64,000 nucleotides of DNA from an uncultured Candidatus Saccharibacteria bacterium (GCA_964490365.1 CAZBAG010000002.1:6411-70410); one strand, 5' to 3'. Counted from the stretch's first letter, positions 17,054-51,325 are shown. Notes: generated from the letters alone by a model not told the origin. Made by a program: numbers and translations.

Positions 17054-17064
17054 AACCATATAAA

Positions 17065-17084
17065 ATCCCTTCGGGGGTTTTTTG
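17065..17084 (+). terminator. tig terminator (atccc-ttcg-ggggt followed by tttttg)
   Basis: Short GC stem with a UUCG tetraloop and a T tract 12 nt after the tig stop. Confidence 0.5.
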
Positions 17085-17090
17085 TTTACC

Positions 17091-17288
17091 CTTACTTTTT
17101 TCATGACAAAAAAGTAACAAAAACTCTAGACCCACACTTCACACCTAAAACTAATAGATGTTAAGCCAACAAAACTTCAAACTCAGAACGTCTATACGTT
17201 CCTCAAACAGTGAAGTTTTGTAGAGCAACATACTATTAGTTTCTTAACGGTGTTCTCGTGTAGGGTCGGAGGATCTTAATTAAAAAAA
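17091..17288 (+). repeat. Copy A of a ~190-bp conserved element (candidate structured RNA leader or insertion-associated element)
   Basis: The first ~95 nt (cttacttttttcatgacaaaaaagtaa...gacccacacttcacacctaaaa) and last ~35 nt (acggtgttctcgtgtagggtcggaggatcttaatt) are near-identical to the reverse complement of 50556-50750. The middle differs but keeps a hairpin. Details are in the findings. Confidence 0.55.
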
Positions 17289-17315
17289 ATAGAAGAGCAA
17301 TATATAAAAAGAAAA

Positions 17316-17345
17316 AGGGCGTCTCGATGTCGAGACGCCCCGTTC
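17316..17345 (-). terminator. Rho-independent terminator of the GC-rich islet gene (gggcgtctcga-tg-tcgagacgccc, T tract in minus sense)
   Basis: Perfect 11-bp GC-rich inverted repeat. In minus sense it is followed by ctttttctttttatat. Confidence 0.6.
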
Positions 17346-17485: not shown

Positions 17486-17998
17486 TCAGCATCGCAAGGG
17501 CACCGCCATCCAGGCAGGACGCCTCATCACCGACGCCTCAAGGCGCGGGTGCAGGGCTGCCATACTGGCAAGGCCGGTCGCATGTTCTTTGAGGTTATCG
17601 CTGATGTTCACTCGCATATTGCTGGCGCACGATCGTCGATCGCACCAGGCCCGCGGATGTTCACCATCGTACTTGCCCACGTTCACCAACTTGCTGCTTT
17701 CACTGCCGAAGAAGACCTTCTTGTTCAAGATATAATGCGTCGTCGCGACCGAATGGTCGGATCGATGCAACACGGTCTCCTGGCCGCTGGCTTGCACCGC
17801 TGTGCTGAAATAGTTGTTGGTGATGCTGACCTGGAAAACCCCTTGCTCGGGCATGATCAGGTTGGCCGATGCGCTGTTGTGGTCGTTTACTTCGATGTTG
17901 TCCACCTTCGGACCCGTGTCGGGTGCCGCGAAGGCGGGTTGGGGGCTGAACACCAAACAGGCGCCCAGCACCATGGTAAGGTGCAAGATCTTCTTCAT
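17486..17998 (-). CDS. Secreted hypothetical protein encoded on a ~57% GC islet (possibly 3'-degenerate)
   Basis: Signal peptide MKKILHLTMVLGACLVFSPQPAFAAPD and a plausible beta-rich mature region. The last ~60 aa are Arg/Ala-rich and may be frameshifted junk. The overlapping + ORF 17327..18034 is antisense noise. GC is far above the flanks. Confidence 0.4.
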   Translation of the reverse strand: MKKILHLTMVLGACLVFSPQPAFAAPDTGPKVDNIEVNDHNSASANLIMPEQGVFQVSITNNYFSTAVQASGQETVLHRSDHSVATTHYILNKKVFFGSESSKLVNVGKYDGEHPRAWCDRRSCASNMRVNISDNLKEHATGLASMAALHPRLEASVMRRPAWMAVPLRC

Positions 17999-46528: not shown

Positions 46529-46600
46529 AGAAATAGTTTACCATACGTTGTTTGTTTTAAGAGAAAGAAAAAGCCCGCTTGCAATTGCAAACAGGCTTCG

Positions 46601-46674
46601 TGGAGGGGACAGGATTTGAACCTGCGACACCAAGACTTATACCCTTGTGCTCTACCAGCTGAGCTACGCCCTCC
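46601..46674 (-). tRNA. tRNA, identity not confidently assignable (3' CCA encoded)
   Basis: The minus-strand sequence GGAGGGCGTAGCTCAGCTGGTAGAGCA...GCAGGTTCAAATCCTGT...CCA has canonical D and T arms. As I read it, the anticodon loop is GUAUAAG (anticodon AUA, implausible) and there is an acceptor-stem mismatch. I may have the register wrong. Check with tRNAscan-SE. Confidence 0.55.
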
Positions 46675-49964: not shown

Positions 49965-50555
49965 TTACTCTGGTTTTACTCGACTTATCGTCACGTTTCC
50001 TTTTGTAGCTTGATGATGTTTCTGTTTTTTCTTATTTTGTTTTCGCGGTCGGAATCCAATCAAATATTTTTCTGGATGTTTTGATAAATCCATAAAATCG
50101 TCTGAGGCGTCTATCAGTCTTTGAGATGACGATTGCCCAAATGACGCAACCTCTACTTGAATACCAGAGTGAATTTGTAAATATTCAACAAGTGGAACAA
50201 AGTCTCCGTCTCCAGAAACAATAATCACGGCGTCTAGTTTTGGCGCCATGGTAATAGCATCAACAGCAAGACCGACATCCCAGTCACCCTTTTTAGATCC
50301 TCCAAAAAATACTTGTAGATCTTTTGTTTTTGTTTCAATACCATTCTTGTGAAGAGCTTCAAAGAAACCTTGTTCGTCTCCCGCTTCAGACGTAATCACA
50401 TACGCAATCGAGCGAATGAGTTTTCTACCCGCAAGAGCGTCTTTCACAATTTCTGCAAAGTTCACTTTGTGACCAAACAAATTTTTTGCTGAATGGTATA
50501 AATTTTGTGTGTCGATAAAAATTCCGACACGTTGTTCTGTATGTTTTATTATCAT
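49965..50555 (-). CDS. NYN-domain (LabA-like, PIN-like) predicted ribonuclease
   Basis: VGIFIDTQNLYHS at the N-terminus and the SGDGDFVPLVEYLQ motif with a conserved acidic cluster, typical of NYN/LabA (DUF88) nucleases. It has a basic C-terminal tail. Confidence 0.7.
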   Translation of the reverse strand: MIIKHTEQRVGIFIDTQNLYHSAKNLFGHKVNFAEIVKDALAGRKLIRSIAYVITSEAGDEQGFFEALHKNGIETKTKDLQVFFGGSKKGDWDVGLAVDAITMAPKLDAVIIVSGDGDFVPLVEYLQIHSGIQVEVASFGQSSSQRLIDASDDFMDLSKHPEKYLIGFRPRKQNKKKQKHHQATKGNVTISRVKPE

Positions 50556-50750
50556 ATTTAAAAATTAAATCTTCCGACCCTGCACGAGAGCACCGTAAAA
50601 AATAATATTGTTTTGCCTTAGAAATGAGTACTGTCTGAGCAAGCCTCATGGCTTGCGAGTTTAGTCATTTCTTGGCTTAAAACATATTATTTTTAGGTGT
50701 GAAGTGCGGGTCTAGATTTTTATTACTTTTTTGTCATGAAAAAAGTAAGC
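50556..50750 (-). repeat. Copy B of the ~190-bp conserved element; forms the entire leader of the NYN gene
   Basis: The reverse complement matches 17091-17288 at both ends (~90% over about 130 nt) and runs to within ~5 nt of the NYN ATG (...agggtcggaagatttaatttttaaatATG). It lies immediately downstream, in minus sense, of the rpsO terminator. Confidence 0.55.
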
Positions 50751-50816
50751 AAACATCTTTTATAAAAATCACAAGAGTATGAAACTCTCACGTATATATA
50801 GTAACACCTAAAAACA

Positions 50817-50845
50817 AAAACCCCTTTCGAGAAGGGATTTTTGTT
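50817..50845 (-). terminator. rpsO terminator hairpin (ccctt-tcgag-aaggg with T tract in minus sense)
   Basis: Hairpin flanked by A and T tracts within 35 nt of the rpsO stop. Confidence 0.5.
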
Positions 50846-51113: not shown

Positions 51114-51325
51114 GGGCCTGATATTACTATATAAATTTCTATTTCGCAAGAGTCTCACCCTTCGTTTGACCTAAGGCCACCCATACGGCAAGAGTATTTT
51201 AAAAATCCCTTTATGAAAATATATTCTTACGAAACTGCATACATAATAGCATAAAATATACTTGTTTGTCAATAGCTCATCTTTATGTGTTTTATTTTCC
51301 GACACATACGATACAATAGAAGATA

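Follow-up and report, generated by a model that had tools for sequence, protein, structure and literature searches.

Introduction

Correia and ERIC elements are intergenic repeats of bacteria. Promoters and RNase III cleavage have been documented for Correia elements, and effects on mRNA stability have been documented for ERIC (PMC10969869). For ERIC/IRU-type repeats in general, effects on mRNA stability and on termination are documented or proposed. In addition, PATEs and REP/RAYT elements are mobilised in trans as single-stranded DNA. Meanwhile, the Patescibacteria (CPR) have tiny, streamlined genomes, and these are usually said to contain little mobile DNA and few known non-coding elements.

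In this study, we analysed a stretch of 64,000 nucleotides (hereafter the window) from an uncultured Candidatus Saccharibacteria bacterium (GCA_964490365.1). An earlier, sequence-only reading of the window had noticed a duplicated element and had proposed that it was a structured RNA leader or the end of a small mobile cassette. We found that the element belongs to a repeat family which is multicopy and polymorphic, and whose structure is constrained without strand bias. We propose that it is probably a new structured, non-autonomous intergenic repeat, which spreads, recombines and decays at permissive sites and some copies of which come with a portable promoter and ORFans.

Results

Two Copies of the Element in the Window

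The features of the two copies, together with the evidence by which they were delimited, are as follows. SH1 and LH denote the two hairpins.

17091-17288, plus strand: copy A, aligned to copy B in inverted orientation
17092-17117, plus strand: SH1 of copy A, TTACTTTTTT-CATGAC-AAAAAAGTAA, with a 10-bp A/T stem (fold)
17118-17128, plus strand: A-rich linker of copy A between SH1 and LH, CAAAAACTCTA (alignments)
17129-17267, plus strand: LH of copy A, GACCCACAC...GTGTAGGGTC (fold and family covariation)
17179-17210, plus strand: apical module of copy A, in which unpaired AAACTC (17179-17184) and CTCAAACAG (17202-17210) lie around a variable apical hairpin (17186-17201)
17268-17289, plus strand: tail of copy A, class (i), GGAGGATCTTAATTAAAAAAAA with a small A/T palindrome (tail classification)
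50750-50556, minus strand: copy B, aligned to copy A over its whole length
50723-50748, minus strand: SH1 of copy B, identical to that of copy A
50576-50712, minus strand: LH of copy B, GACCCGCAC...GTGCAGGGTC, with the apical hairpin at 50639-50656
50556-50575, minus strand: tail of copy B, class (i), GGAAGATTTAATTTTTAAAT, which reaches the start codon of NYN

The full-length alignment of copies A and B confirmed that the same element is present twice in inverted orientation. The identity between them was 86% at positions 1-95, 67% at positions 96-160 and 79% at positions 161-198. The pattern of similar ends around a diverged core was therefore as first described, with figures slightly lower than the ~90% given for the ends. 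In addition, a 27-nt block at the 5′ side and a 24-nt block at the 3′ side each occurred twice in the window, where shuffled sequences lead to an expectation of zero. Neither a whole-window repeat search nor an unfiltered covariance-model scan found a third copy in the window.

Both copies share one fold, consisting of SH1 and the long hairpin LH (-61 and -63 kcal/mol, z ~ -8.5). The reverse strands of both copies fold at least equally well and are slightly more stable. The fixed irregularities of LH in copy A are a UUC/UCUC internal loop, a bulged A and AA bulges, and part of its linker pairs with the tail (CUCU/GGAG) in the predicted fold. The identical 5′ hairpin had been taken to be 8 bp long; it is indeed shared, and its stem has 10 bp (UUACUUUUUU/AAAAAAGUAA). 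Near the base of LH, the compensatory exchange of an A-U for a G-C pair between the copies is real (alignment columns 48/220). The two copies also have different apical hairpins at one position, as had been claimed, namely gaacgt-ctat-acgttc at 17186-17201 in copy A and gcaagcc-atga-ggcttgc at 50656-50639 in copy B.

Members and Hosts of the Repeat Family

An exact scan with the 19-mer AGACCCNCACTTCACACCT against one representative genome per species returned 31 loci. Of these, 25 were true copies, full or partial, distributed over seven Patescibacteria MAGs, and JGI metagenomes yielded 17 more. Furthermore, a covariance model was built from 23 copies, and it also retrieved diverged and broken copies that do not contain the 19-mer. 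Overall, pattern scans together with this model yielded over 50 copies beyond the two of the window, in seven related Patescibacteria MAGs and 17 metagenome contigs; a search of related genomes had been among the checks proposed in the sequence-only reading. There were about ten copies in MAG SRP329715_co2_21 and five or six in others. The only cluster was at L061 (related loci are given here as L numbers), where three copies lie in 4.9 kb.

The names of the host MAGs are inconsistent (Paceibacterota, 'Saccharibacteria' and WWE3). Amino-acid identity among the host genomes was 96% for clpP, 88-91% for xer and 96% for rpoB. Since the shared proteins are 81-96% identical, the hosts form one narrow clade. 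As far as could be detected, the family is confined to one Patescibacteria clade of genus or family level (Paceibacteria-like). In addition, short-read contigs of the window's own strain and of its relatives stop inside SH1, which is typical of assembly breakage at a repeat.

Rfam searches of the window, both copies and 24 related loci, in gathering and E-value modes, found only tRNA and 23S rRNA. At Rfam 15 gathering thresholds there were six tRNAs in the window and nothing else, and E-value scans of both copies gave only weak chance matches far below threshold. This agrees with the initial impression that the element matches no known RNA family. BLASTN against plasmid and phage collections gave no match, and in viral contig scans two blocks gave chance seed matches only. 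A literature search on Patescibacteria/Parcubacteria repeats, MITEs and hairpin RNAs returned nothing relevant. By these searches, the family is previously undescribed and shares no sequence with any known family.

Anatomy of a Unit

A unit of ~190-230 bp includes, from 5′ to 3′, SH1, an A-rich linker, LH and a tail. SH1 is a 10-bp A/T hairpin. Its stem covaries, and there are at least five variants, all of them Watson-Crick (TTACTTTTTT/AAAAAAGTAA, TTTCTTTCTT/AAGAAAGAAA, GTTCCTTTTT/AAAAAGGAAC, CCTACTTTTT/AAAAAGTAGG and others). LH is a long hairpin of ~140 nt, imperfect but nearly perfect, with a stem of ~60 bp. Its G+C-rich base, GACCCACAC/GTGTAGGGTC with a bulged A, is present in nearly all copies. 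Above the base there is a UUC/UCUC internal loop, followed by a second helix (ACACC/GGTGT), and the upper part is a long A/U-rich stem with fixed AA bulges. At the apex, conserved unpaired AAACUC and CUCAAACAG surround a hairpin of 6-15 bp that can have essentially any sequence. This unpaired apical motif is retained even in diverged subfamilies (L046:270-450 and L085).

The tails of 38 copies could be sorted into three classes. Class (i), to which both window copies belong, has GGAGGATYTTAATTAAAAA plus a small A/T palindrome, often followed by a terminator (8 copies). Class (ii) has GRARGTGGYTA and then a promoter, TTGACAAAA-N-TATRTGATATAAT (11 copies). Class (iii) has GRAAYCTCTYCG, which is CTCTTCG-type (10 copies), and the remaining 9 copies have other tails. 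Alternative sequences start directly past GGGTCG, and because the tails are alternative, the 3′ boundary of the element is fuzzy. A conserved small ORF or a type I toxin within the element was considered and rejected, since the longest stop-free stretch is only 30-36 codons and the variation is stem-compensatory.

Structural Constraint without a Strand Signature

We examined 54 consensus pairs in 37 full-length copies. Paired cells amounted to 96.4%, compared with 81% when partners were shuffled and ~43% when the columns were slid by 1-3. Changes on both sides were found in 29 of the 54 pairs, although common ancestry and the exchange of modules inflate these counts. The pair statistics agree with the original claim of a conserved structured element whose stems are held by compensatory changes, and the proposed stems do covary in homologous copies. 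In L085, even the most conserved, basal block of the family, ACACTTCACACC/GGTGTTCTCGTGT, has been swapped for the unrelated but complementary ATGAAATATCTC/GAGATATTTCAT. Small, nested G+C-rich palindromes have invaded some copies, and these are confined to unpaired parts. Furthermore, the alignment shows that stem modules are mosaic among copies, that is, they have been exchanged symmetrically between copies.

The 1832 pair cells included 1752 Watson-Crick pairs, 14 G-U, 23 A-C or C-A and 43 others. It should be noted that an A-C or C-A cell is a G-U when read on the other strand. Wobble was thus tolerated no more than other mismatches on either strand, and an attempt to assign a strand gave no asymmetry. 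Because G-U is no commoner than A-C, neither strand shows the signature of an RNA. This Watson-Crick-only pattern may reflect selection on folded DNA. It would also suit a need to fold in the transcripts of both strands, or a hairpin-templated correction of the quasi-palindrome in which selection keeps the conserved bulges. A stem that evolves almost wholly by double changes offers a case for separating selection on folded DNA, or templated repair, from selection on RNA structure. It is also a caveat for covariation-based RNA discovery.

Genomic Context of the Copies

All copies are intergenic. Their neighbours are unrelated genes, including tig, rpsO, rpoB, clpB, tuf, rpmE, rpsI, gatB, thyA, ligA, fba, rpiB, a VirB4-like gene and 23S rRNA. 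It had been asked whether other copies also precede NYN or other accessory genes, and the neighbours were unrelated housekeeping genes instead. About half of the copies share their strand with the gene downstream; the gene upstream runs co-directionally in ~17 cases and divergently in ~13. Tandem, convergent and divergent arrangements all occur. The start of a copy lies 7-12 nt past a stop codon or just behind a terminator, or else a divergent promoter has its -35 box 10-40 nt away. The units spread and turn over among intergenic sites that lie past terminators or stop codons or upstream of -35 boxes. The best-scoring and most intact copies (~10) sit between divergent promoters, where read-through is not expected.

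These positions bear on the possibility that the element is a host-domesticated RNA hairpin which is read either way, as a bidirectional terminator or insulator, an mRNA 3′-end stabiliser or an RNase III site (REP/ERIC/SPRITE-like). Folding would then be needed on both strands, and this would explain the Watson-Crick-only covariation. Many copies do lie 7-12 nt past a stop codon without another terminator (both L061 a and b, L055, L031, L077, L085 and L088). U-rich runs follow the stem on the reverse strand, where LH is directly followed by GUUUUUGUUACUUUUUU, and also on the forward strand in tail (i), which has GAUUUUAAUU past the extended stem. The slightly more stable reverse-strand folds, the copy downstream of tig that is kept across the clade, and the precedents of ERIC, Correia and SPRITE point the same way. 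A simple terminator scan does not call the element, the stems of which exceed the design of the scan. However, the ~10 intact, top-scoring copies are found exactly where no read-through is expected, whereas the decaying or replaced copies are those in clearly transcribed spacers (rpsO-NYN). Several copies are already placed behind a good canonical terminator, and ~60-bp stems with conserved bulges far exceed what termination needs. We consider that domestication as an RNA hairpin, which is partly compatible with our main reading, is possible but doubtful as the full explanation.

We could not find a sigma-70 promoter ahead of the element itself; the loops of SH1 often resemble TTGACA and are thus -35-like, but they are without a -10. 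This matters for the idea of a multicopy family of trans-acting sRNA genes, each a long hairpin with its own promoter and terminator. The strong structural conservation, the TTGACA-like loops and the intrinsic terminators past several tail-(i) copies on the forward strand (L054, L069, L061b and L070) would suit such genes. However, an acceptable -10 is lacking at the required spacing from the SH1 loop, no upstream promoter was found, and copies often begin 7-12 nt past a stop codon or a terminator. In addition, G-U is tolerated no more than A-C, the tails and 3′ ends are heterogeneous, and copies are freely gained, lost and degraded. An sRNA family is therefore very unlikely.

On the 3′ side, 11 copies at no fewer than 7 distinct loci have a common outward promoter (TTGACAAAA-N-TATRTGATATAAT), followed by ORFans that have no Pfam match and are often GC-rich. 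A Pfam search of nine cargo or islet ORFs found no family. In 8 of 38 copies, the 100-400 nt past the tail have at least 47% G+C compared with a background of ~37%, and this was never seen on the 5′ side. Many copies are without cargo (for example, at L061 and L055). ORF clustering over ~400 kb of loci found no transposase, integrase or other repeated protein gene adjoining any copy, and all clusters were groups of syntenic orthologues. Within ~8-20 kb around each copy, there was no parent IS that shares the ends of the element. Meanwhile, a candidate right-end motif, 'TAATTTTACA', was seen after the cargo terminators in L039 and L074 and not elsewhere; it is probably a mere T-tract and was rejected.

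The tig-clpP and rpsO-NYN Loci

The features around copy A in the tig-clpP gap are as follows.

17062-17081, plus strand: intrinsic terminator of tig, directly 5′ of copy A
17316-17341, minus strand: terminator of the islet gene, abutting the tail of copy A and equally placed in L085 and L088
17486-17998, minus strand: GC-rich (58%) secreted ORFan, the 'islet', with its promoter at 18080-18053

The element directly follows tig throughout the clade (the window, L035/L077, L065/75, L085, L087 and L088). It is followed by a terminator that belongs to a secreted ORFan, which is convergent, fast-evolving and G+C-rich (58-61%) and has 36% amino-acid identity where clpP has 96%. In the outgroup L086 (tig identity 55%), the tig-clpP spacer has 58 nt and contains neither the element nor the islet. 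Since the gap is filled throughout the clade and empty in the outgroup, copy A and the islet represent an old, persisting insertion. That the copy downstream of tig is held at one locus clade-wide would also fit a host function. The GC-rich islet had been described as following copy A in place of an ORF. There is indeed no downstream ORF on the strand of copy A, but the islet is a real gene on the minus strand with its own promoter and terminator.

The features around copy B are as follows.

50821-50836, minus strand: intrinsic terminator of rpsO, upstream of copy B
49965-50555, minus strand: NYN (LabA/DUF88) gene, downstream of copy B, a core gene of the xer-rpsO-NYN-pnp block

With the tig and rpsO terminators located (17062-17081 and 50836-50821), both copies do follow intrinsic terminators, as had been noticed. 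Both had also been said to abut an apparent insertion. This is true of copy A, as the clade retains the islet and an outgroup lacks it, but not of copy B, as NYN is a conserved core gene in a block that is widely conserved.

The element at rpsO-NYN varies. The window and L053 have an intact copy, L079 has a hybrid whose base is broken, L039 and L080 have a shortened variant, and L067 and L074 have unrelated sequence in place of the element. In L081 and L083, whose NYN is 71-77% identical, the rpsO-NYN spacer has 66-88 nt and no element. L067 and L053 are 98% identical in rpsO, yet in L067 the element occupies the xer-rpsO spacer, and rpsO-NYN is filled by unrelated sequence. Because of this 98% identity, the turnover at rpsO-NYN is taken to be recent.

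The proposal that the element is a cis-regulatory 5′ leader or riboswitch for the gene downstream (NYN or another accessory gene) can be judged at this locus. In L053 the orthologous copy is placed as in the window, where copy B reaches the start codon of NYN. NYN is probably transcribed through copy B, since copy B abuts the start codon and no separate NYN promoter is seen. Copy B had been described as running up to the ATG of NYN with an RBS-like GGAAG; it does end at the ATG (50555), but GGAAGA lies 14 nt upstream, which is far for an RBS. Against a leader, the NYN orthologues at 71-77% identity lack the element, and in-clade copies are broken or replaced. Elsewhere the copies are dispersed in mixed orientation next to unrelated genes, with the downstream gene on the opposite strand in about half, and copy A has no downstream ORF on its strand. 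Furthermore, there is no Rfam match, wobble is not preferred, and the conserved parts are stems with no core resembling a ligand pocket. A leader or riboswitch is thus scarcely tenable.

Mobility, Turnover and Cargo

Between xer and rpsO, the window and L053 have an empty spacer (~170 nt), whereas that of L039, L073/74 and L067 is filled. In L039 it contains a unit of ~660 nt, which includes SH1, LH and the tail (ii) promoter, followed by a 107-aa ORF and a terminator. In L073/74 there are the element, the same promoter as in L039 and a 36-aa membrane ORF. In addition, MAG BC1.90 has two copies with 97.6% identity, one ahead of rpoB (L041) and the other ahead of clpB (L043). The matching stretch opens ~30 nt before SH1, includes the promoter and reaches into the start of an 88-aa G+C-rich membrane ORF, and the flanks are unrelated. 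Near-identical variants also occur at non-orthologous loci of different genomes. The units swap stem modules, and some of them carry or drive small ORFan genes.

At the only site with two junctions (L039 versus the window and L053), no target-site duplication is evident, and the flanks there have diverged. True terminal inverted repeats could not be defined in the unit, as LH is internal and the unit starts 0-30 nt before SH1 and runs into the tail or cargo. The element matched no known IS or MITE end, and no target-site duplications were seen. It should be noted that part of the presence/absence pattern could be caused by deletion, segment replacement or repeat-mediated assembly chimerism (L077 versus L035). 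The suggestion of a structured end of a small mobile cassette is thus partly supported, by the polymorphism between close relatives, by the duplicated unit of element, promoter and ORF, and by the sites that are empty or filled with ~660 nt.

One form of mobility would make LH a cassette recombination site of folded DNA (attC-like or Xer/CTX-phage-hairpin-like), which a tyrosine recombinase recognises once LH is extruded or single-stranded, and behind which ORFan cassettes are swapped on the 3′ side. The structure is conserved while its sequence is replaceable, there are conserved extrahelical or unpaired bases and a variable apex, and alternative sequences begin directly after GGGTCG. GC-rich ORFans lie 3′ in 8 of the 38 copies and never 5′, the cargo ORFs beside the element at xer-rpsO differ by species, three copies are clustered at L061, and an Xer-type recombinase gene adjoins one hot spot. 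However, this gene is the only tyrosine recombinase near the copies, and it is a conserved, single, housekeeping-type gene that is present also without the element (L081 and L083). Sequence inspection found no RYYYAAC/GTTRRRY core, and there is no integron integrase and no ordered array. Furthermore, the cargo uses the promoter of the element itself and can be inverted (copy A in the window), and many copies are free of cargo (L061 and L055). Such a cassette site is in our opinion quite improbable.

Discussion

The evidence above is best explained by a new non-autonomous, structure-dependent repeat that spreads among intergenic sites. In such a repeat it would be the element itself that requires the hairpin, most likely in the form of folded DNA which a putative trans-acting recombinase or transposase recognises. 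Alternatively, the complementarity may be upheld by hairpin-templated repair. Read-through from a neighbouring gene would produce a long RNA hairpin that could terminate transcription, affect transcript stability or be cut by RNase III, and copies with a promoter may act as portable promoters, by analogy with Correia elements. Copy A has long resided in the tig-clpP gap, as has copy B between rpsO and NYN, and neither is a dedicated regulator of the gene downstream.

A more specific proposal is that LH, as folded DNA, is the target of a putative structure-specific recombinase or transposase, with a system that would move a portable insulator and promoter unit and swap small ORFans on its 3′ side. 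This would be an integron-like or single-strand-transposon-like capture system of the ultra-small Patescibacteria. We think this unlikely as it stands. If gene capture by folded DNA were true, conservation of structure only and Watson-Crick-only covariation would be its signature.

The repeat has practical consequences in any case. Some ten or more copies per ~1-Mb genome break short-read assemblies, including those of this organism. In addition, the element marks hot spots of ORFan gain and loss, and some copies carry a predicted strong promoter, which makes the element a candidate driver of accessory-gene expression. Because it breaks assemblies, marks ORFan hot spots and supplies promoters, it is a practical marker of strain variation and rearrangement in the clade.

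Several known systems were compared with the element. 6S RNA is a single-copy hairpin of ~180 nt with a large central bubble. The element was rejected as a 6S RNA, because it gave no 6S match even at E<10, is multicopy and has a near-perfect stem in which the only sizeable loop is apical. A retron ncRNA (msr-msd) was also rejected, since no RT-like or repeated ORF adjoins any copy and there are many copies per genome.

The attC sites of integrons resemble the element in being imperfect hairpins of up to ~140 nt, in which structure is kept over sequence, unpaired or extrahelical bases lie near the base, the apex is variable and the neighbours are ORFans of odd composition. The element, too, folds into an imperfect hairpin, keeps certain bases unpaired and varies in its terminal structure. 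However, the base is GACCCACAC...GTGTAGGGTC and has no core of R'' (RYYYAAC) and R' (GTTRRRY), the copies are single and dispersed and form no ordered arrays, an integron integrase is absent, and the present cassettes come with a promoter. We thus rejected the element as an integron attC.

PATEs derived from IS200/IS605, together with REP/RAYT elements, are likewise hairpin-dependent and non-autonomous, and they too have no terminal inverted repeats or target duplications. They differ in their short stems (~10 bp versus ~60 bp here), and no Y1/HUH transposase was seen near any copy. A single-stranded mobilisation like that of PATEs or REP would fit the Watson-Crick-only constraint.

As in MITEs, the unit is short (~190-230 bp), non-coding and without a transposase gene, and its dispersed copies show presence/absence polymorphism. 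It differs from MITEs in that its inverted repeats are not at the ends of the unit. ERIC/IRU repeats (and also RUP, BOX, SPRITE and SMAG) are similar as imperfect palindromes of ~100-150 bp in transcribed intergenic regions with a copy number that varies by lineage. ERIC differs in that its sequence is unrelated and that it has no arrangement of SH1, LH and alternative tails and no portable promoter, whereas here many copies lie between divergent promoters.

Correia elements, which are MITEs of Neisseria, are non-coding, intergenic, multicopy repeats of ~100-200 bp, the arms of which pair into a long hairpin when transcribed (PMC10969869). Some of their subtypes have outward sigma-70 promoters, and they lie just upstream of genes and vary in presence among strains (PMC10969869). 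However, Correia elements are bounded by terminal inverted repeats of 26 bp and duplicate a TA target, whereas here the inverted repeat is internal, with SH1 on one side and a variable tail on the other, and a duplication was not seen. There is also no sequence similarity between the two; the present hosts are Patescibacteria, the whole stem of ~60 bp is kept compensatorily, and its base can be swapped. Among the systems compared, the behaviour of the element is closest to that of the Correia/ERIC-type MITEs.

Gene between the element and clpP

On the clpP side of copy A (the element copy in the tig-clpP gap), a secreted ORFan gene is located with its own promoter and terminator:

17486-17998 (-): secreted ORFan gene, 170 aa, between the element and clpP
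18080-18053 (-): promoter of the ORFan gene
17341-17316 (-): terminator of the ORFan gene

The G+C content of this gene is 58%, compared with a background of about 37%. The -35 boxes of its promoter and the divergent clpP promoter overlap inside the palindrome CTTGTCAAG. Members of the clade keep the gene, whereas an outgroup is without it. In addition, the protein evolves very fast, showing 36% amino acid identity to its counterpart at L035 (a locus from a relative), whereas that of clpP is 96%. The Pfam search of the 170-aa protein matched no family.

Spacers around rpsO, and a tRNA-Tyr call

The xer-rpsO gap of relatives is occupied by a G+C-rich stretch of 200-450 nt, with a promoter at one end and a terminator at the other:

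L079:8815-9440, L081:3270-3650 and L083:9112-9650: G+C-rich stretch

No gene was called and no Rfam match was obtained in these three stretches, which may represent an undescribed RNA or small-ORF locus. The xer-rpsO spacer of the window itself (51159-51325) is empty. On the other side of rpsO, a second terminator-like hairpin was found:

50770-50792 (-): CGTGAGAGTTTCATACTCTTGTG with a T-run after it, lying past the rpsO terminator and ahead of copy B (the element copy in the rpsO-NYN gap)

Elsewhere in the window, ARAGORN called a tRNA with an unusual anticodon, whose Rfam tRNA score (44 bits) is the lowest among the six tRNAs of the window:

46600-46674 (-): tRNA-Tyr, anticodon 'ata'

Element copies in related genomes

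Three element copies were found within one short contig (L061, co2_76, 4.9 kb). Two of them share a strand and are interspersed among rpiB, fba and an rpe-like gene, each starting 7-12 nt past a stop codon, and the third, at the contig end, belongs to a diverged subfamily. The metagenome contig L077, compared with L035 and L054, joins the SH1 hairpin downstream of tig to a long hairpin (LH) and flank found on another contig of the MAG SRP329715_co2_21. Either the repeat mediated a rearrangement here or the contig is an assembly chimera.

A second repeat family, consisting of small G+C-rich palindromes (CCCGCC...GGCGGG, 20-45 nt), is nested within element copies:

L036:~2120-2170, L048, L057, L065/L075 and L068: nested palindromes

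They are confined to unpaired parts of the element, namely the SH1-LH interval or the 3' internal loop preceding CGGTG.

Downstream of promoter-bearing tails (L050, L056 and L068), different cargo ORFs have the element promoter in common, and their terminators are alike as well (GCCCCGAGCGCAnTGCGCCGGGGC). Furthermore, the 107-aa ORF of L039 and the 154-aa ORF of L050 have basic and acidic N-termini that appear homologous.
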